Origin: Alphaproteobacteria bacterium
GTDB lineage: Bacteria; Pseudomonadota; Alphaproteobacteria; MPNO01; UBA830
Assembly: GCA_964291215.2 (NCBI GenBank)
Contig: OZ219791.1
Span: 2,208,001-2,272,000, forward strand
Reading direction: 5' to 3'
Length of the DNA stretch: 64,000 nucleotides
A program made the translations under genes and the position numbers. Below the pieces are notes generated by a model that was not told the DNA's origin, did no database searches, and worked only from the letters and a program-made list of their open reading frames with translations. Positions within the stretch are counted from its first letter, which is position 1, and each line of letters starts with the position of its first letter. This document shows, in pieces, positions 13,699 to 24,859 of this stretch.

Positions 13699-14055
13699 TC
13701 AGAATATCGCGAATGAGGTGCCGCAGCCGCAAGTGGAGGTCGCGTTCGGATTTTCGATCGAGAAATAGGCCCCGATCAGTTCTTCCCTGTAGCTGATCTC
13801 GGATCCGGCGAGATATTCCCAAGATGTTTCATCGATCACGACCTTGACGCCATCCCGTGAGATGACCCGGTCGTCATCATTGACCTGGTCGTCGAAGATG
13901 AAACTGTACTGAAAGCCCGAACACCCGCCACCGTCGACGGCGACGCGTAGCAGGACGAGCGCCTCCTGTTCGGCCGCCAGTTCCTTGAGGCGTCTGACTG
14001 CCGAATCGCTGACCGTGACCTGCTGTTCAAGGGTCTCTGCTTGTCCGTCAGGCAT
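13699..14055 (-). CDS. erpA: Fe-S cluster insertion protein ErpA (HesB/IscA family)
   Basis: GGGCSGFQY, NPNA..CGCGTSF; adjacent to xth. Confidence 0.92.
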   Translation of the reverse strand: MPDGQAETLEQQVTVSDSAVRRLKELAAEQEALVLLRVAVDGGGCSGFQYSFIFDDQVNDDDRVISRDGVKVVIDETSWEYLAGSEISYREELIGAYFSIENPNATSTCGCGTSFAIF

Positions 14056-14439
14056 CGCGCTGCTTCCTGCATCGGGGCATACGGTCAATCTGGGGCAATT
14101 GCTGTTTGCAGTCAAGAGGCGGAGTTCCGACAGCCAAGGCGATCTGCAGCGTCCAGACGCACCGTTACCTGACCCCGCACCACCTCCATCCCGCCGCCCG
14201 GCGGCGACAGGCTACGATGGTCCTCCTTCCGAACCACCACCGACGTATCCTTGATGCAGGGAGCGAGGCCCGGCCGGTCTGCATCGGTCGGCAGTTTTCC
14301 GTTGCGTGACAGACGGTTGGGCCTGGCCCGGCCTCTGACCGCGGTTTCGCGCGCGGGTCGCGTTGTCCGTTCAAGAGCGCCGTTCCGTTCCCCCGGGACG
14401 GACGGCGCCCGAGGGAACAGACAACGGAGACACGCGCAT

Positions 14440-15530
14440 CCATGCCCCCATCAACGAGCGGACGGTCCGCCGCACCTTCAGGGAGAAGAAACCCGGGCGA
14501 TACGGCCTGACCGTCAGGGACCTGCCCGCCTTCGGCTTCACCGTCGCCGGGACGAAGACCTTCTTTGTCCAGACCTCACGCCAGTTCGGCGCGCCCAGGG
14601 CGATCCTCGGCACGACCGACGACATGACCGCCGCCGAGGCGAGGGAGAAGGCCATTGCCGCCATCGCCGAAGCCGGGGCCGACCGCGAGACCGGGCCGCT
14701 GTTCGCCGACTTCGCGGCCGACTTCATGCGCCGCCAGGGGCGGCGCTGGAAACCCTCCACGAAGAAGGCCAACGCCCATCTGATCGAGCGCCGCCTCCTG
14801 CCCTTCTTCGGCGCGATGCCCGTCGCGAAGATCGACCGCGCCAATGTGCGGCGCTGGTTCGATTCCCTCAGCGGAACCCCCGGCAGCGCCAACCGGACCC
14901 TGCCGGTGCTCTCGGTGATGATGCGGCAGGCGGAGCTATGGGACCTTCGCCCGCAGGGCTCCAACCCCTGCCGCAACATGCGGCGCTACAGGACGGCGCC
15001 GCGCGAGCGGTTCCTGTCGCTGGAGGAACTCAAGCGCCTCGGCTTCGTCCTCGACCATGCGGAGGACCGGCAGGCCGCCTGCTGCTGTTCACCGGCGCCC
15101 GGTCGTCCGAGATCGCCGGCCTGCAATGGGACTGGATACGGGACACCCGCGCGGTGTTGCCGGACTCCAAGACCGGGCGCTCCAGCTTCCCCCGCGGGCC
15201 GTCCTGAATGGCCTGCCGCGCGAGGGACGCTTCGTCTTCCCGAACGGGAAGGGCGACGGCCCGATGACCGACCTCGGCCTGCGCTGGCAGAAGCTGCGCG
15301 GTCTCGCCGGGCTGGACGATGTGCGCATCCACGACTGCCGGCATACCTTCGCCTCCCATGCCGTGATGAGCGGCCTCGACCTCTACACCGTCGGCCGCCT
15401 GCTCGGCCATGCCGATACCGCCTCCACCGAACGCTACGCCCATCTCGCCGACGAGCATGTCCGCGAGGCGGCCGGGCGCATCTCCGGCATCGTCCACGAG
15501 GCCATGACCGCGAAGGAGAGCGGGCGATGA
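14440..15530 (+). pseudogene. Tyrosine recombinase/integrase 1 (Arm-binding N-terminus), frameshifted
   Basis: FTGARSSEI, LPDSKTG, RIHDCRHTFASHAV, LLGH, ERYAHL distributed over three frames. Confidence 0.85.
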
Positions 15531-16859
15531 GCGGCGGCAGGCACCGGCTCACCGTGAAGGCCGTCGCCAAGCCGGCGGAACGGGAATACACCCTGTGGGA
15601 CAATCTGCTGGCGCATTTCGGGGTCAGGGTGCAGCCCTCCGGCGTCCGGTCCCGGATCGTCCAGACCCGCGTCCGGGGACGCATGCGCAAGATCACCCTC
15701 GGGCGCTTCCCCGAACTGCCTCTCGACGCGGCCCGCCGGGAAGGCGCGGCCGTGCTCGCCCGCCTGTGGGGCGGCGAAGACGTGACGCCGCCGCGCAAGG
15801 AGAAGGCGCCGCTGTTCCGGGACTTCGCCGCCCGTTACCGCTCGCGGCGGAAACACCGCTGGAAGCCGTCCTCGCTCGAGACCTTCGACATCTACCTGAA
15901 GAACCGCCTGATGCCGCACTTCGGCAGGCTCCGGCTCGACGCCATCGACCATGCGCGGGTCTCGGCATGGTTCGACGCCGCCAGCGCGGACAGGCGCCGC
16001 CAACCGCGCCTTCGAGATACTCCGCGCCATGCTCGGGACGGCCCGCCAATGGGGCGACATCTGCGAGCATGTCCCAGACGCCTGCGCCAACATCGTGAAG
16101 AACCCCCGCAAGCCCGTCGCGCGTTACCTCAGCCGCGAAGAGCTGGAGCGTCTCGGCGCTGTGCTGGACCGCCGCCGGGAGGACCACCCCTGGCCGGTGG
16201 CGGCCATCCGGCTGTTGACCCTCACCGGGGCGCGGCTCTCCGAAGTCATCAACCTCAGGTGGGACGAGATCGGAGAGCTGGCCGGAGACGGCGCGAGCGC
16301 GCGCATCGAAGACTCCAAGACCGGGCCGCACACCATCTGGCTCGGACCCGAAGCGGCAAGGCTGGTCGAGGCGCTGCCGCGACTGGATGGCCGGGAGCGG
16401 GTGTTCCCCGAAACCCTCACATCGGCAAGGCTCTACACCTTCTGGTGCGGTATCCGCGACGAGGCGGGGCTTCCGGGCCTTCGCATCCACGACTGCCGCC
16501 ACACCTGGGCCTCGCAGGGCGTCATGAACGGCGTCGGGCTCACCACCGTCGGACGGCTGCTCGGACACCGCAAGCGGGAGACCACCGCGATCTACGCCCA
16601 TCTCGACGATGGCGCGCTGCGCGACGCCGCCGCGCAGGCCGCCGCCGTCATCGCGCGAGCGATGGGGTACAGGGCGGAAGCGGCGCCGCTGCCGGACAAG
16701 GCGGAGCACGGCGACGTATTGGCTGCAGCGCCCGGGCTCCCGGGTCCCGGAAAGCCAACCGCGCCAGAGAAGGAGTGGATTCCTCTTCGTGGCAGATCCC
16801 GGGATCCGGAGCGATCGGATGCAAGCATCCGCCGTAGACCGCAGGGTATCGAGATCTGA
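15527..16859 (+). pseudogene. Tyrosine recombinase/integrase 2, one frameshift near 15990
   Basis: Arm-DNA-binding-like EYTLWD..FGVRVQPSG..KITLGRFP, then TGARLSE, DSKTG, HDCRH, LGH, AIYAH; ATGA overlap with integrase 1. Confidence 0.88.
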
Positions 16860-17029
16860 GTTTGTGGCGGGCGTGGAGCCGATCGGGGAGGGTCAGGCGG
16901 GGTCTTTGCCATGAGCCCTGATCGGGTTGCCGGTCGTCCCGCCAGTTACAGGGAAAGGGCCCGTCGAGCCGGCTCTGCGGGCTCGTCGTTCATGCCGGCA
17001 ATGTCCAGGATCGCGACGGAGCCTCGGCC

Positions 17030-17366
17030 GTGCGGAAATCGATCCGCCATGCCTGCCCCTGGCTGCGCCATCTGTTCGCCGACGGCGGGTATGCCGGGCC
17101 GAAGCTGCGCGGCGCCTCGACAGGGTCGGCAAGTGGACGCTCGAGATCGTCAAGCGGTCGGTCATCGCAAGCGGCTTCGAAAGCCTCTCTGGACGATGGG
17201 TCGCCGGACGCACCTTCGCGTGGCTCGGACGCTGCCGCAGGTTGGCGAAAGACCGGGAGAAATCCATCGCCTCAAGCGAAGCATGGATCGAAATTGCTCA
17301 CATCAGGCTTACAACACGGCGCCTCGCAAGGCCCTGTAATCCTTGAAGGAGTTTCAAGTCAGGCTC
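17030..17366 (+). mobile_element. IS5-family transposase 3' remnant with right end
   Basis: PWLRHLFADGGYAGPKL and RW..RTFAWLGRCRRLAKD.EKSIASS; ends GTCAGGCTC. Confidence 0.8.
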
Positions 17367-17407
17367 CGAGGCCGGACGCGCCTGCCGAAAGGCGATTCAT
17401 ATTTTGT

Positions 17408-17448
17408 TTGATTTTGCAACATCATCATGCTACATTGTATGAAAATCA
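17408..17448 (+). promoter_or_regulatory. Sigma70-like promoter overlapped by an imperfect inverted repeat (candidate XRE operator)
   Basis: TTGATT (17408)-17 bp-TACATT (17431) with TG extension; arms TGATTTTgcaACA / TGTatgAAAATCA. Confidence 0.5.
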
Positions 17449-17463
17449 GACATGGAGGCTCCA

Positions 17464-17808
17464 ATGGCACCTGTTACGACACTCGAGCCCAAGACCGTAC
17501 CGGCATTCCCTGCCGGGGAAATCGAGGCCTGTATCCGCGATGTCCTGGCGGACCAAGGCGCGATGCAGGTGGCCCTGCAAGGCGGCGCAACACCAGCAGG
17601 CGATCCGGGCAGTGCGGTCGGTCCGCAGCCGGTGATCGATTCGCTGGTCGTTGTGGAAGTGCTGCTTGCAATCGAGCCGAAAGTACCGTTCGCGCTTCCC
17701 GACAGTCTGGTACAGCCGGGCGGTTACGACAATGTCGATGAGGTCGTGCAGCATCTTGTGCCACAACTGGAGCGGCGGTGGCGCAAGCATCATGAGGAGA
17801 AAAATTGA
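17464..17808 (+). CDS. Small acyl-carrier-protein-like protein
   Basis: IDSLVVVEVLLAIE resembles the ACP (L/I)DSL..VE...A.E helix; GGAGG RBS; TGATG coupling to the next gene. Confidence 0.6.
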   Translation: MAPVTTLEPKTVPAFPAGEIEACIRDVLADQGAMQVALQGGATPAGDPGSAVGPQPVIDSLVVVEVLLAIEPKVPFALPDSLVQPGGYDNVDEVVQHLVPQLERRWRKHHEEKN

Positions 17809-18200
17809 TGGCGGACAAAAGTAGGCAAGGCGAATCCTGGAGGGACGAAACGATTGACCGGCAACAGCTTGGCGCGCGTTTGCGCGAGGCGCGAGAGTAC
17901 TTGGGCCTATCACAGGATGAAGTAGCAAAATACCTCGGGATTCCGCGAACGGCGTTGTCGCATATCGAAAGCGGTCAGCGCCGCCTCGACGCGCTGGAAC
18001 TGAAAAAGGCTGCGCATCTGTATAAGCGCCCCATAGCCCATTTCACCGGAGAGGCAGAAGCTGATGCAAGCCTGCCTGACGACATCGCCCATCTGGCCCG
18101 TGCCGCTGCCGGCTTTTCGGAAAGGGACCGCCAGGAATTGAGCCGGTTTGCCGACTATCTGCGGGCACGCGCGCAAAGCGAGAGGTCCTCGGATGGCTGA
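17808..18200 (+). CDS. XRE-family HTH transcriptional regulator
   Basis: LGARLREAREYLGLSQDEVAKYLGIPRTALSHIESGQR. Confidence 0.93.
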   Translation: MADKSRQGESWRDETIDRQQLGARLREAREYLGLSQDEVAKYLGIPRTALSHIESGQRRLDALELKKAAHLYKRPIAHFTGEAEADASLPDDIAHLARAAAGFSERDRQELSRFADYLRARAQSERSSDG

Positions 18201-19208
18201 CGTCCGCAATGCCATTTTGCGCGGCAAGCGCGAGGCCGGCCGGTTGCACCGAGCGTTCGGGATGCGGGAGCGTGTCGAAGCGGAAGGCGGCCGGATCGAC
18301 GTGTTCGACACGATCATTAAATCGGGTGTGCCGCTTTTGTTCAAGCCGCTAGAAGGATTGCTCGGCGTTTTCATCAATGAGCCGATGCCCGGTGTCATGG
18401 TGACGACGAAGCGGGGACTCAGTATTCAGCGCTTCACCGGCGCTCATGAGCTGGGGCATTGCGTCCTCGATCATCGTCCGAGTCTTGATGATGAGTCGAT
18501 TTTGCGACGGTCGCCGTTCAATACCACGCCGGATTACGAGCAGCAGGAACTCGAAGCGGACGCATTCGCCACGGAGTTCATGATGCCGCCTTGGCTGTTC
18601 GTGGCGCATTTCCTGCGACACGAGTGGACGCCTGCGTTGATGGCGGATCCGCTGATGGTCTATCAACTCTCGCTGCGGATCGGTACGAGCTATGAGGCCA
18701 CATGCCGATCATTGATGCGGCCCGGCGTTGCCGTGATACAGAAGAACACGGTCGATAACCTGCTCCGTGTGCAGCCCAAGGCCATCAAGAAAGCGTTGCT
18801 TGGAGACTATGAACCGCCCGACTGGCGGCGGGATGTCTGGCTGCTGACGAAAAATGACGAAGGTGCCGTCATCGAGGGCAGCCGTTCGGACCTCTTTGTG
18901 CTCAAGTTGAAAGAACACAGCGGGTCCGGCTATGTCTGGACCTTCGAAGAACTCAACGAAGCGGGCTTTGCCGTTGTCCGCGACGAGCGTGAGGGACCGG
19001 ACGGCGAAACAATCGGCGGGCACGTGATGCGGTCGATTACGGCGCGCTCCGAAGGACCGCAACAGGGACGAATGGCACTTGCAGAGCGGCGCCCATGGCT
19101 TGCCGAAGGCGCACCACTGGCCTCATTCTGCGTCCACTTGACCTGAGCGGGCCGCAAGGCGAAGGGATATCGCGAGCCGAGCGGCAGCATCTGCTGGGAG
19201 CCGCCTGA
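18193..19208 (+). CDS. ImmA/IrrE (M78) metallopeptidase fused to a chagasin/I42-like inhibitor domain; probable 1-nt deletion near 19139 (current ORF stops at 19146)
   Basis: QRFTGAHELGH and E.EADAFA.EFMMP; C-terminal LKEHSGSGYVW..IGG..RRPW; shifted frame DLSGPQGEGISRAERQHLLGAA* ends in TGATG on the next start. Confidence 0.85.
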
Positions 19209-19909
19209 TGGAGGTCACGGTCGAATGTGACCTGCGTCATTTGTTCGGTCCGGCGCGCGATCAAGGCGTGCGGCCAACCTGCATGGCCTTCGCGGCAAGT
19301 GACGCCCACGCGGCGGCCCGGCCGGACTGGGTTCCACTGTCGTGCGAATACGCCTATTTCCATGCACTGAGACGGGACGGGGGCAACCCAGATGACGGGA
19401 CAACGCTCACTGCGATACTGACGGCGATCAAAGAGGACGGACAGCCGCCGGAGACGACCTGGGCGTACCTGCCGCGCATGCCGGCCGACTTTGCGCTATG
19501 GAAGCCGCCCGAAAGCGTCAGCCTTCTTTACCGGCGTGCCAACGCCCATGGCCGCGCATCACTCACCGCAATCCGTACAGGACTAGATGCCGGAGTACCG
19601 ATGATTACAACGATGTGCCTGTCCGATGCATTCTTCCAGCCCGACCCGGACAGCATCATCGACGCATGCGAGCCACCCGACCCGCAGCGGCGGCACGCGA
19701 TTATCGCGGTCGGCTATGGCACTCGGAGTGGCAACCGACTGATCCTTGTACGGAATAGCTGGGGCACGGGCTGGGGCGCCGATGGTTATGCGTGGGTAAG
19801 CGAAAGCTATCTTGCACCCCGTTTGTACGATTTTGCAGAAATGAAAGAGGATCTGACGAGTGTACCTGCCGATCCCAACGCAGCCAACGTGCGCAACAGC
19901 GTGGCTTGA
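19208..19909 (+). CDS. Papain-like (C1) cysteine protease
   Basis: RDQGVRPTCMAFA (Q..C), HAIIAVGYG (H), RNSWG..WG..GY (N); no signal peptide or pro-domain. Confidence 0.92.
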   Translation: MEVTVECDLRHLFGPARDQGVRPTCMAFAASDAHAAARPDWVPLSCEYAYFHALRRDGGNPDDGTTLTAILTAIKEDGQPPETTWAYLPRMPADFALWKPPESVSLLYRRANAHGRASLTAIRTGLDAGVPMITTMCLSDAFFQPDPDSIIDACEPPDPQRRHAIIAVGYGTRSGNRLILVRNSWGTGWGADGYAWVSESYLAPRLYDFAEMKEDLTSVPADPNAANVRNSVA

Positions 19910-20668
19910 GGCCTTGGTGGCTGTCGACAAGGAGCCCGGCCACGAAGCGCACAATGTGATTATCGACATGGCCGAGCCGCTGGTGCAGACCGCCGTCGAC
20001 GCGCGCATGATGAAGGTCGCCGACGATTTCTTACGTGACCGTGGCGCAATGCCCCTGCAATCCGTGGCGAATACGATCTTCCCGGAGGGTCTATACCGGC
20101 GGCACGGCGCGCCTGCTCTCTATCACGTGTATGGACAGGTTTACCAGCAGGTAAAGAAGAAGCAAGGCGATTGGGGCCGGTATTTTGAACGGATGATTCG
20201 CCGCCCGACTACAAACGGCAAGAACATCAATCCTCTCGCCGACATGATTGCGAAAATGACGCAGCATGTTCACGGTGGCGGCAAAACGTTCCGCAACATA
20301 TACGAGTTGACCGTTTCCGATCCAGCTCTCGATGTGCCCATCTATGATCCCGAACGTGATGCCGGGCCGGTGATGAACCGACAGTGCATGAGCTTCCTGA
20401 GCTTCAAGCTTGATCATGAAAACGCATGATGCTGACCGCCTTGTACCGGAACCACTATTACATCGAACGGCTGTTCGGCAATCTGATTGGCCTCGCTCGG
20501 CTGATGGCTTTCGTTGGGCGCGAGGCCAATGTGCCGGTTGGTCCGCTGACCGTCATCTCCACCCACGCCGAAATCGACACGCGGCGCGGCTGGAAGCGCC
20601 ACGATATCAAAGAGCTAATCGCTGCGTGTCGGGAAGCCACAGCTCAAAAGGTGAGCGTCGTCGCGTAG
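19860..20668 (+). CDS. Thymidylate-synthase-like protein, split into 19860-20429 and 20426-20668 by a probable 1-nt deletion
   Basis: QCMSFLSFK (catalytic Cys position), LTALYRNH, FGNLIGLARL.AFV, VGPLTVISTHA match the TS core topology. Confidence 0.7.
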
Positions 20669-20672
20669 CCGA

Positions 20673-21323
20673 TTACCTGCCTGCGCTGGCGGTGCAACGC
20701 ACGCCGTAAAGGTCGCACATGCTGTGAATGAACTCCTTCTGCCCGCCATAACTGGGATGCCGGACGGCGGTCGACGCAAGATCAAGGTGGGAAAGCGCTT
20801 GCTGCGCATCGCGGCCTATGGCGACGAGGCGCCGGGGCTGCAGCATTTGCATCAGGGTCAACAAAATATCGTGGAACATGTCCCGCTCCGCGCGTGTATG
20901 ACGGCGGTTAGAAAGGGGGTCGCCAGTCTTGAAGGGGTGAAGCGGGAATACGTTCCACAGGAAGATTGGCCTGTCAATTTGGGTGAGCACCTTCCAGACG
21001 ATGGCTGCTGTGCGCTCAGCCATAGGTGGCCCTTTCGTCGCGCGTGAGATCGAGACCCCGTAAATCTCCCTGAACGTCTGCAAGTGAATTTCGTCCGTGA
21101 GCGGCAGCCCGGTTTGGCGTCCACCACGATAACCCAGATCGCGCGCAAGCCAAATTGAGTCCACTTCTTCATCCGCAACGGTTTCAAGAAAAGCGCGCAA
21201 ATTAGCGTGCCGCCTTTTCGGAGCGTCAGCGCGGTCATGGACCGGGCATACGTCTCTGTACGGATTGAAAACAGCGTCGAGATGGACGGCGCTCAAGGCG
21301 TCGACGAGGGCAGACGGTTTCAT
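20673..21323 (-). CDS. Uracil-DNA glycosylase superfamily protein
   Basis: VFNPY, DLGYRGGRQTGLPLTDE, ERTA, WNVFPLHP, AIGR.A, RHPSYGG. Confidence 0.85.
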   Translation of the reverse strand: MKPSALVDALSAVHLDAVFNPYRDVCPVHDRADAPKRRHANLRAFLETVADEEVDSIWLARDLGYRGGRQTGLPLTDEIHLQTFREIYGVSISRATKGPPMAERTAAIVWKVLTQIDRPIFLWNVFPLHPFKTGDPLSNRRHTRAERDMFHDILLTLMQMLQPRRLVAIGRDAQQALSHLDLASTAVRHPSYGGQKEFIHSMCDLYGVRCTASAGR

Positions 21324-22555
21324 GCGGCCAACCTCTCAAAGGTTATGTTTCGTTCATTCAGATCGACGATAACACTACCGCGTCTGTGCTCGCGTAGCGC
21401 ACGAAACACTTCATAGCCGCTCAGGATTGCCTATTCCCATAGCCAGAGCGGGCAGCGCTCTGGTTCATATCCGGTGACGAGCGCCCGCGCATTTTTGAGA
21501 AGGCCGTAATCGACGCCGCTTAAATTCTCGAAAAAATTCACCTGCGTAGCGTGATTGAATATCCAGGTCGCAACACCTTCCTCAATCAGTATGGCGCGAG
21601 CTCCGTCCTCGGCCTCATTGATCTCGGGACGGCTTTTGCGCTTGACCCGGAAGAGCGCCCGCATGACCGGGGACCACCCCAGTTTGGCCGCGTAAGCAAG
21701 ATGGAAAACATCATGGAAGCAATAATCGTCTTTTTCCAGCTTGTTGTCGGTAAGCCGGTCACCGACGTTGACGTCATTGCAGCGCAAAAAAACATACATC
21801 TTTTTGTCCACCGTCTTCTCGAAAATCTGCATCTCTATACGTCGCGGAATCTGCTCCCCGGAATCATATTCGTCGTCGAAGAGCGGCGGATAGATGCACT
21901 TCAGTGGCCAGCGGTCGTAAATCTTGGAGAGATTGCGATGCGCGGCTTCGCCCAAGCTGACGCCGACATTGTTAGCAGCTTTTATAATAGTACGGAATAC
22001 AGTTTCCATGTGGTCCGAAAGGTCACCGGACCCGTCCGCGATTTGACCTGCCGAAAAATCGGCGATCAGTTTGCCAACCTCGCCGGCCAAACGGATGAGC
22101 GTTGTCTCGAACACGGCTTCGGCGTCCGGTCCTGAGACCGACAACGTTGGCTGAAGCCTTGAAAAGGTGATGTCTGGCACGCTATCGTTGGAACCGCCGT
22201 CACTGATGCGGCTGGCGAGCACTGGAAGCGTTATCTGTGCCCGGCTGGCCAAGCGGGAGAAATACCAAAGGATGTCCCCCAACTCTTCGATGACTGACTG
22301 CTGGTAACCGAAATAGGAATCGGAATCGCGCTGCTTCTTCTTAAGTTCAGACAGCAGGCTTCCTGCCTCGCCAAACAGACCTAGCAGAGGGAAAGAAAGT
22401 CCCTCGGGCATCCGGTCTGTACCGCAGGACAGGGTTTGATATTGCGCGAGAGTGAGTTCGCAATAGGGAGCTTTCAGAACTGCCTCAAGCGCACCTGACA
22501 TTTTGTCGCGCTGCTCCGCAGAGTTCTTGCTCTCGCCGAAACGGAGGTTCGCCAT
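21320..22555 (-). pseudogene. MazG-like NTP pyrophosphohydrolase with MazG_C domain; in-frame TAG at 21431-21433
   Basis: GLFGEAGSL..E.KK, EELGDILWY, D.Y.FHDVFH, WSPV.R, EDGARA..IEEG; frame resumes for 36 codons to a TGA overlapping the UDG ATG. Confidence 0.82.
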
Positions 22556-22655
22556 CAAATCCTCACATCCTACCGCAACTGGGGGAAGGGCCGATGATGA
22601 CCCCTCCTGCCCGGCCTCGTCGCAGTGGGCATTCCAACACGCCGTGCACGCTCGC

Positions 22656-22940
22656 CTACTCTCGTCTGGCACCGAAACTACCGACGATGCCGCGTTTCTC
22701 GAAGGCGCCCGCGGCTTCGGCATGGTTCGGGCCGTGGAAGCCGCCCCGGATGATATCCCCCGAGGCTCCGGAACCGAATGTGCCGTCCGCGCCGACCGGA
22801 ACGTCGTCGAAGCTGACGGCGCCGACGGACCAGGCATCGCCGTTCGCATTATCCCTGATGTTGTCGATCGCCACGTCGATCATGCCGGCCGCAGCGCTCC
22901 AGGAGAGAGTCGCGTCCCCGGCCAGGCGGGTTCCGACCGC
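22656..22940 (-). pseudogene. C-terminal fragment of a TbpB/transferrin-binding-like beta-barrel surface protein
   Basis: IRGGFHGPNHAEAAGAFEKRGIVGSFGARRE* matches the typical G.F.GP...E..G.F....G.FGA.R terminus. Confidence 0.6.
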
Positions 22941-22944
22941 GGCT

Positions 22945-23420
22945 CCCCGCTCGCTGGCGATTTCCATGCCTTCGCCGAGGCCGGCCGCCGTCTCGCGGCA
23001 CTGCATCTCGGCTACGAGACCTGCGAGGAATATCCGCTGCGGCTCGACTATGCCGGGAAGGGCGCGCCTGCGCTGGCGCAGTTCCGGCTTGGCCATCGCG
23101 CCATGCGCTTCGCCGACGCGGACCGGACCGTTCTCATCGTCAACGACCTGGTCCGCCTGTCGGGCATCCCCCCGCAAGCACACGAGTATCGGGTCAACGG
23201 GCGCACCCCGCTCGAATGGCTGATCGATCGCTACCGTATCGTCCGCGACCGGCAGAGCGGCATCGTCAATGACCCCAACGGCTGGTTCGACGACCCGCGT
23301 GACCTGATACCGGCGCTGCGCCGCATCGTGCAGGTCAGCGTGGAGACCGTTGCCATCATTGCGGGCCTTCCCTGTCCGTTCGCGGAACTGCGGGAACAGT
23401 CGAACGGAGAGCGACCATGA
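22945..23420 (+). pseudogene. Type ISP restriction-modification enzyme C-terminal (specificity) fragment
   Basis: DFHAFAEAGRRLAALHLGYE, GIPPQAHEYRVNGRTPLEWLIDRY, SGIVNDPN, IVQVSVET; no N-terminal part. Confidence 0.85.
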
Positions 23421-24859
23421 CGGTCGAGCGGATCGCGCGAATGGTATCGGCGGGTGAATCCGAAACGCTTGAGTTCAAGACCACGACCGGGACGCGCCGC
23501 GAGGCGGTACGAACCGTCTGCGCGATGCTTAACCAGCAGGGCGGCCTGGTCCTGTTCGGCGTCACGCCGGAAGGCCGCGTGGTCGGACAGCAGGTGAGCG
23601 AACGCACAATCGAGGAGGTGAGCGCTGAGCTCTCGAGAATAGATCCGCCCGCATTTCCGGCGATTGAACGCATCCCAGTTAAAGAAGGTCTCGAGATCGT
23701 CGCCGTCACTGTCGTGCGCGGGCAAGTCGGACCCTACATGTACCGTGGCAAGGCGTACCGGCGGGTCGGCAACACAACCGTCGAGATGGACACGGGCGAG
23801 TACCGCCAAATGCTCTTCGAGCGCATGCACAGCGAGCGGCGCTGGGAGAACCAGCCTGCGGAGGGATGGTCGGTCGACGAACTGGACGCACAGGAAATTC
23901 GCACCACCGTGGAGGAAGCGGTGCGGCGAGGCCGGATCGAAGATCCCGGCACCCGCGAACCCGGCGATCTGCTTCGTGGCCTCGGACTTTACCGGGACGG
24001 AATACTGTGGCGGGCGGCGGTTGCGCTGTTCGGCACCGAGGAACGGATCACTTTCGATATGCCGCAGTGCCTGCTCCGCGTCGCGCGCTTCCGGGGTATT
24101 GATCGCACGGAGTTTGTCGACAATCGTCAATTTCATGGCAACGCCTTTTCACTGCTCAAGGCCGCCGAACGCTTCCTGCGCGACAGCCTGCCCATCGCGG
24201 GTCACATTGAGGAGGGTCACATTGAGCGAGTCGACAAGCCGCTCATTCCTCCACTTGCGACGCGCGAGGCGCTGGCGAACGCGCTTTGCCATCGTGACTA
24301 TTCTATCGGTGGCGGTTCCGTGGGCGTTGCGATCTACGATGATCGCTTGGAGGTCACGTCGACCGGGACGCTGCATTTCGGGCTGACACCCGAAAAGTTG
24401 TTTGCACCGCACGAGTCGATACCCTGGAATCCGCTGCTCGCCGATGTCTTTTACCGTCGCGGCATCATTGAGCGCTGGGGACGTGGAACGCTGAAGATGG
24501 CGGAAGTGACAATCGCAACTGGATTACCGCAGCCCGAAATCGAGGATGCTGGAGGGTGCGTGACGGTTAGATTCCGCCATCCGTCGGCATCAATGCATAT
24601 CGTCGCGAAAGAGCGTATGGTTATTGCCGACGAATCAAATGTGCAGGTGCAGAAATTGAGCGAGGTGCAGCGGAGCGTCCTTGATCTCTTGGACCATACC
24701 GACCATCCTCTAGCACTTCGCGAAATACACGCTCGTTTGGCTGGATCTCTGAGTCTTCGTCAGGTGAAGAGGGTATTGGGCCGATTGCGGGAACTCGGAT
24801 TTGCAACATCGACGGGTCATGGGGTATCGGCTCGATGGAACCGCGCGCAAGGACAATAG
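23417..24859 (+). CDS. Schlafen/AlbA_2 + HATPase-like (RecG C-terminal type) + wHTH protein
   Basis: GESETLEFK, CAMLNQQGGLVLFGV, REALANALCHRDY, WNPLLADVF..G.IERWGRG. Confidence 0.9.
   Translation: MTVERIARMVSAGESETLEFKTTTGTRREAVRTVCAMLNQQGGLVLFGVTPEGRVVGQQVSERTIEEVSAELSRIDPPAFPAIERIPVKEGLEIVAVTVVRGQVGPYMYRGKAYRRVGNTTVEMDTGEYRQMLFERMHSERRWENQPAEGWSVDELDAQEIRTTVEEAVRRGRIEDPGTREPGDLLRGLGLYRDGILWRAAVALFGTEERITFDMPQCLLRVARFRGIDRTEFVDNRQFHGNAFSLLKAAERFLRDSLPIAGHIEEGHIERVDKPLIPPLATREALANALCHRDYSIGGGSVGVAIYDDRLEVTSTGTLHFGLTPEKLFAPHESIPWNPLLADVFYRRGIIERWGRGTLKMAEVTIATGLPQPEIEDAGGCVTVRFRHPSASMHIVAKERMVIADESNVQVQKLSEVQRSVLDLLDHTDHPLALREIHARLAGSLSLRQVKRVLGRLRELGFATSTGHGVSARWNRAQGQ

Follow-up and report, generated by a model that had tools for sequence, protein, structure and literature searches.

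The stretch of alphaproteobacterial DNA considered here (64,000 nucleotides of contig OZ219791.1; hereafter the window) carries an M78 zinc-peptidase fused to a chagasin-like inhibitor domain of family I42, directly ahead of a papain-like C1 protease at 19208..19909 on the forward strand, an arrangement that a sequence-only reading had recognized and that our analysis confirms. On balance, we think it probable that the fusion and the C1 protease form the switch of a mobile, probably anti-phage operon, in which I42 would block C1 and M78 would cut a repressor. The operon runs in the order carrier protein, Xre repressor, M78/I42 fusion, C1 protease and thymidylate synthase (TS)-fold enzyme, usually with genes for MazG-C and a uracil-DNA glycosylase (UDG). 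What heads it may be a variant of the M78/Xre switch, and the operon itself is possibly a new kind of system. It is real and widespread, and apparently uncharacterized: full-text literature searches yielded no description of the fusion or operon, although an earlier computational mention may exist, and the M78/I42 domain pair is already annotated automatically in databases.

Gene-order counts below are over 168 loci, each count limited to those with sufficient flank. These loci were drawn from the 80 best-matching of 449 genome hits, the 80 best-matching of 473 metagenome hits, for which a distant member served as first query, initially four of 17 plasmid hits, one viral contig and, out of 400 sampled genomes of the phylum, three loci. 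Excluded from the counts were the locus in the window itself, a stand-alone I42 and 64 viral loci with generic M78 matches. The loci are not independent, as about 27 are near-identical sphingomonad copies.

The C-terminal domain of the fusion is, judged by profile and fold, a chagasin-family I42 domain. It matches Pfam PF09394 at 30.9 bits, above the gathering score of 27.2, and has the chagasin-type Ig-like fold; residues 211-319 are chagasin-like, and there is no C-terminal GAF domain. In the window the M78 peptidase and central helix-turn-helix (HTH)-like domains span 18193..18831 (+), with HELGH at 18445-18459 and the distal Glu119 at 18547-18549, and I42 spans 18832..19146 (+), with its loops at 18913-18939, 19009-19017 and 19090-19098. 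The loop parallels to chagasin drawn from the sequence alone hold in large part. The RPW loop (L6) is conserved across 122 inhibitor domains (R in 115, P in 116, W in 120), the GxGG loop (L4) keeps the first glycine of IGG in all 122 and the second in 88, and 112 of the 122 match chagasin in the length of the central loop. The NPTTG motif of loop L2, however, is absent; E[HN]SG[AGS]GY stands in its place, with G-Y-x-W retained, and ENPSTG occurs in a few distant family members. The family is sizeable: 1404 of 3806 candidate proteins match at an expectation value (E) of 1e-20 or better, the full-length members among those listed are mostly 335-340 amino acids long, and the inhibitor-domain profile reaches representatives down to about 30% identity.

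C1 is tied to this domain by gene order. Its gene is the next one after the fusion in 137 of 138 testable loci, all 51 testable metagenome loci among them, and the sole exception is an insertion between M78 and I42 that leaves I42 adjoining C1 (L008:8657-11369, 2.7 kb). On a Mycobacterium plasmid (L242), an IS630 element lies between the peptidase and a short C1. In the reciprocal direction, this C1 occurs in 20 plasmid records, of which 17 also carry the fusion, and for two of the remaining three (27-28% identity) inspection found the cassette absent. At 76 of 112 loci the stop codon of the fusion shares bases with the start codon of C1, and at the others the gap is at most 12 nt. In all 112 loci the mature C1 domain begins -2 to +5 codons from the upstream stop, which leaves no room for a signal peptide or pro-peptide. 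The enzyme is intact, as the sequence-only reading had also held: the catalytic Gln, Cys and His are present in 101 of 101 proteins and Asn in 100 of 101, the NSWG motif is present, and Pfam PF00112 matches at E 2.3e-11. Its nearest relatives are ordinary C1A endopeptidases. The window copy carries Q19 (19262), C25 (19280), H163 (19694) and N183 (19754).

Excerpts of the chagasin mutagenesis work (PMC2607524) help in weighing the loop differences: loop length matters for every target, while changes to the Thr residues are target-specific, ranging from a 140-fold loss to a slight gain. The same excerpts place the RPW arginine in contact with protease residue 18. In the cassette, C1 residue 18 is Asp in 92 of 107 loci with the RPW Arg and in none of the five without it; these five form two clades, that is, two events in the same direction, so the Arg/Asp link is not significant. 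Partial correlations of distance matrices, computed over 69 loci under 85% identity, point the same way. The I42–C1 value of 0.39 (subsample range 0.29-0.47) is the highest between genes, against 0.0 for M78–C1, -0.07 for I42–TS and 0.04 for acyl carrier protein (ACP)–C1; among adjacent genes, C1–TS gives 0.20 and carrier–HTH -0.01. Close behind come carrier–TS at 0.37, for genes four apart, and HTH–C1 at 0.33, the latter covariation hinting that the repressor may be acted on by C1. At the level of single residues, mutual information for the I42–C1 pair did not rise above that of control pairs.

Taken together, invariant adjacency, translational coupling, conserved binding loops and the complementary Arg/Asp residues make a cognate inhibitor–protease pair the best reading, and a likely one. 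That I42 binds C1 is likewise likely from conservation and weak co-evolution, and we hold this binding with more confidence than the explanation as a whole. Candidate C1 substrates are the repressor and a carrier-linked product.

The other half of the switch is the repressor. The Xre-family HTH gene (17808..18200, +; HTH_3, E 1.3e-13) resembles PADLOC capH at E 6.8e-11 over 94 of 103 positions, carries a conserved C-terminal helix, D-R-x-E-L-x-R-F-A-x-[YF]-L, and lies upstream of the fusion in 161 of 161 testable loci. Ahead of the carrier gene, a palindrome, TGTCnGA-N3-TCnGACA with at most two mismatches, is present in 96 of the 106 unique regions (dinucleotide-shuffled controls: 0.9) and in 47 of the 53 from metagenome loci, the pattern having been derived from the same collection in which it was counted. 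At no more than one mismatch, in one orientation, it has seven sites in the whole 6.15 Mb genome. The window has two operator-like sites on the forward strand: 17405..17421 (TGTT-N9-AACA; three mismatches vs TGTCnGAnnnTCnGACA) and 17436..17452 (one mismatch). A strict sigma-70 scan of 17250-17500 found no promoter.

A CapH-like repressor, its C-terminal helix and an operator plainly read as an autoregulated operon, presumably induced by repressor cleavage, and a self-cleavage step is not needed. Known systems suggest how the cut might be made. CapP, according to the parts of the source consulted (10.1101/2022.04.27.489752), cuts CapH in the first helix of its C-terminal domain; IrrE cuts DdrO and ImmA cuts ImmR likewise, in excerpts of PMC12828697. 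The M78 zinc site, two histidines and a glutamate plus the distal Glu, is complete in 133 of 133 loci, in scans that required the HExxH motif. As to the trigger, single-stranded DNA (ssDNA) binds CapP between peptidase and GAF domains via R90, seven residues before the first His (PMC13228613, in part), and GAF-less ImmA shows no ssDNA stimulation in the excerpts of PMC12828697. Here GAF is replaced by I42, and the position equivalent to the CapP arginine is Ile or Val in 118 of 135 fusions; ssDNA is for these reasons probably not the trigger, and I42 may double as the input, via its bound protease.

By analogy with these families, the switch could work as follows. The Xre protein would bind the palindromes and hold the operon low, and M78 would cleave the repressor's C-terminal dimerization helix, like CapP, IrrE and ImmA. 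C1, since it is made without a pro-peptide, would need a cytoplasmic inhibitor, which the fused I42 could supply as a tight 1:1 complex. Less firmly, I42 sits at the position of the GAF domain that CapP and IrrE require for stimulation by ssDNA, and gain or loss of the bound protease would be the most likely input, so that protease release would be tied to operon induction. Also less firmly, the output might be pyrimidine-nucleotide chemistry by the TS-fold enzyme and a phosphopantetheinylated carrier, helped by MazG-C and UDG. A fuller version can be offered only tentatively: an immune switch in which a chagasin sensor is locked on its own C1, displacement frees C1 and induces the operon, and a folate-independent TS-fold enzyme joins a uracil-type nucleotide to the carrier or to cargo.

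The genes for that output are as constant as C1. The carrier-like gene (17452..17808, +; true start probably 17464, DSL serine at 17641-17643) precedes the Xre gene in 149 of 149 testable loci; a PDB search with its profile brings up ACPs, the best at E 7.3e-4, and the serine of the DSL-type motif is kept in 121 of 122. Phosphopantetheinyl transferase (PPTase) genes lie beside 15 loci and the Haloarcula copy. The TS-fold gene (19860..20668, +) follows C1 in 128 of 131 testable loci. Its product has the TS fold, the catalytic Cys (20385-20387 in the window), the phosphate-binding Arg and the uracil-reading Asn; a sequence search of the PDB with its profile gave nothing significant, and it was placed by fold search only. 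The Asp of the ThyA R-S-x-D motif, which we take to be the folate site, is largely replaced, the position being Tyr in 44, Phe in 22, Ala in 10 and Asp in 6 of 90. Of 110 testable loci, 97 have MazG-C nearby and 77 have UDG. Because the carrier and TS-fold genes are no less constant than C1, we take nucleotide chemistry, and not a free toxic protease, as the probable output.

The carrier family has features of its own. A Gly-Gly-Tyr close to the C-terminus is near-invariant (122, 121 and 118 of 122), and 14 of 15 loci with DSK, DST or DSQ variants of the serine motif have a dedicated PPTase.

While a cognate pair is the best reading, the two-protease cascade that the sequence-only reading built upon it is not supported. 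In such a cascade, activated M78 would cut or remodel its own fusion and free C1 to kill the cell, by toxin–antitoxin or caspase-like logic. An antitoxin-before-toxin gene order with translational coupling, an intact C1 lacking a pro-peptide, and the M78 antitoxins of RosmerTA, whose RmrA profile in PADLOC is matched here, would all suit such a scheme. We nonetheless regard it as unlikely. A standard M78 substrate, the CapH-like repressor with its operator, is always at hand, and the predicted fusion model is compact over the domain junction, with a predicted template-modeling score (pTM) of 0.90 and per-residue confidence (pLDDT) above 90 at residues 191-240. HExxH is lost with xPW retained in 12 of 61 representative fusions, the carrier and TS-fold genes are kept as strictly as C1, and this genome carries an intact C1 beside a truncated inhibitor—a mild point, as repression could hide toxicity.

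Constant carrier, C1 and TS-fold genes, together with the conserved carrier serine and dedicated PPTases, would also fit C1 being a pathway enzyme: a thioesterase, amidase or acyl-transferase on a carrier- or nucleotide-bound product, docked and gated by I42, with no proteolytic cascade. Papain-fold enzymes can transfer acyl groups. This too we find improbable, since the carrier covaries with the TS-fold protein and hardly with C1 (0.37 vs 0.04), and the nearest relatives of C1 are endopeptidases; even here, I42 would still bind C1. Less probable again, and to our minds remote, is that I42 serves as bait for a foreign papain-like protease of a phage, plasmid or eukaryotic host, whose binding activates M78, the operon's C1 not being the partner. 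I42 does stand in for the sensor domain of CapP and IrrE, and the bacterial chagasin-like proteins Cip1 and Cpi1 target foreign proteases in the portions of the reports consulted (PMC5014320; 10.64898/2026.06.02.729523); those, however, are secreted or lipoproteins, I42 here is cytoplasmic and fused, and bait leaves unexplained the constant, coupled C1, the I42–C1 distance correlation and the joint loss of Arg and Asp. Least credible is a purely structural Ig-like module with no protease-binding role, which the loss of NPTT from the central loop and the Cys-Pro-Trp that replaces RPW in seven of the 12 HExxH-less fusions might suggest.

The forms without HExxH (P0208, P0209, P0217, P0222, P0227, P0231, P0238, P0243, P0130, P0170, P0173 and P0180) were found neither among viral contigs nor among plasmids. 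Several have an HTH joined in front (454-485 amino acids) and Cys-Pro-Trp in the last loop. No longer fused forms of 593-2000 amino acids were found, the range of 556-592 amino acids lying outside both searches. A single M78-I42-C1 open reading frame at L009 (577 amino acids) was not counted; TS and MazG genes of the same contig are also frameshifted.

Several known systems come close to the proposed switch. With CapH/CapP (of CBASS and other immune operons; 10.1101/2022.04.27.489752; PMC13228613), DdrO/IrrE and ImmR/ImmA the cassette shares the M78 HExxH...E site, an adjacent Xre repressor with a C-terminal domain, and an operator. It differs from CapP in having a chagasin domain in place of GAF and a hydrophobic residue for the ssDNA-binding arginine, and from the CapH/CapP pair in lacking the conserved switch cysteine and in being followed by a papain-like protease. 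CapH/CapP-like pairs, in the published account, lie upstream on the opposite strand, whereas here the pair is inside the operon and co-directional.

With the chagasin/ICP I42 inhibitors (chagasin–cruzipain, EhICP, Cip1 and Cpi1) the domain has in common the Ig-like fold, three loops at one end, RPW and loop length, and chagasin likewise regulates a C1 protease of its own organism. In contrast to them, the cassette's I42 is fused to a metallopeptidase, cytoplasmic and an operon-mate of its presumed target, and has E[HN]SG[AGS]GY where chagasin has NPTTG. The protease, for its part, lacks the usual signal peptide and inhibitory pro-peptide of eukaryotic C1A members. RosmerTA shares an HTH and an M78 peptidase ahead of a second gene, but the RmrA matches are limited to the HTH and M78 parts and there is no RmrT match; we know of no inhibitor domain or C1 protease in that system. 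Characterized bacterial chagasin-like inhibitors, in the parts of the two reports consulted (PMC5014320; 10.64898/2026.06.02.729523), have plant proteases as their targets and are either secreted or anchored in the membrane.

In DS-4 (NTTI) of DefensePredictor, a thymidylate synthase and nucleotide kinases form the basis of an anti-phage unit that has been validated, and the same work has MazG-C and UDG among its predicted defense domains (PMC13092281). The 5-hydroxymethyldeoxyuridine (5-hmdU)-kinase and canonical TS families of DS-4 flank many cassette copies. DS-4, however, has a canonical-length TS and a TIR protein, with no carrier, repressor, M78-I42 or C1 genes, and the cassette's TS-fold protein is without the folate-site aspartate. 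At E 0.01, no PADLOC family matched C1, the TS-fold protein, the carrier, MazG-C or UDG.

If our reading is true, a bacterial chagasin-like protein would here work in the cytoplasm, on a protease of its own operon and as part of a transcriptional switch, and the M78/Xre regulators, for which ssDNA is the known trigger, would gain occupancy by a protease as a further input. Prokaryotes would equally offer a compact, clonable example of how an inhibitor controls a papain protease that lacks a pro-peptide. The occurrence, in four bacterial phyla and on an archaeal plasmid, of a carrier coupled to a TS-fold enzyme without its usual folate-site residue points to unreported nucleotide chemistry in phage conflict.

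The cassette is mobile: its spread is patchy, it travels on plasmids, and the window's copy occupies an island whose integrases are broken. In the bacterial family to which the window belongs, 24 other genomes (completeness 60-100%) gave no match to the C1 family; 11 of the 17 plasmids are conjugative, and the plasmid copies include one from a haloarchaeon. The 80 genome loci divide among Pseudomonadota (72), Acidobacteriota (5), Nitrospirota (2) and Actinomycetota (1). Among viral contigs, the full fusion occurs at one of 65 loci, the remaining 64 being generic M78 matches, and the TS-fold protein at three. Defense genes neighbor nine of 28 loci, and the cassette probably serves anti-phage defense. 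For instance, it lies between DISARM drmA/drmB and drmMI genes at L213, beside Gabija at L021 and beside type I restriction-modification genes at L005; a caspase-family protein and a protein kinase are encoded just upstream of two plasmid copies (L149:5317-7239, L147:6226-7746).

The window copy itself is probably decaying, as three lesions in about 3.3 kb exceed the rate elsewhere in the genome. Relative to locus L001, a base is missing at about 19138, which cuts the inhibitor domain short in its last strand and tail and leaves an out-of-frame tail (19138..19208, +) whose stop overlaps the C1 start codon. A second base is missing at about 20422, splitting the TS-fold gene, and the MazG-C gene has a premature stop codon at 21431-21433. 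C1 remains intact beside the damaged inhibitor. Undamaged natural copies exist elsewhere, such as that on Sphingobium plasmid pTA15-1 (WP_013039052-058) and locus L001. Intact forms are also present in short-read contigs from one study (three runs), and those over 19138 diverge by 3-5%. Assembly error was considered as the source of the frameshifts, and real decay preferred: the contigs over 19138 are probably from other strains, and frameshifts are rare elsewhere, with one frame change and 11 cases of in-frame stops only, some perhaps shadow reading frames, among 112 genes (117 kb) set against those of a congeneric genome.

Downstream in the window lie two convergent accessory genes on the reverse strand, one for a UDG-superfamily protein (20673..21323; Pfam UDG, E 1.3e-6) and one for the MazG plus MazG-C protein (21323..22555; Pfam MazG_C, E 3.1e-64). 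Accessory genes vary among loci and include a thymidylate kinase with a 5-hmdU DNA kinase helical domain (31 loci, one cluster), canonical TS, dCTP-deaminase-like proteins and PPTases; examples are L198:3208-6596, L021:11714-12748, L190:4137-5177 and L148:5224-8224. No tRNA genes were found in the window. Similarity to L001 extends over 14240-22944, starting directly past an Fe-S insertion gene (13699-14115). The left part of this island, 14240-17340, holds two tandem tyrosine-integrase genes with many short deletions relative to L001, then an insertion sequence remnant, and its right edge, 22503-24859, a fragment of a type ISP restriction-modification specificity domain followed by a Schlafen/AlbA_2–RecG-C protein.
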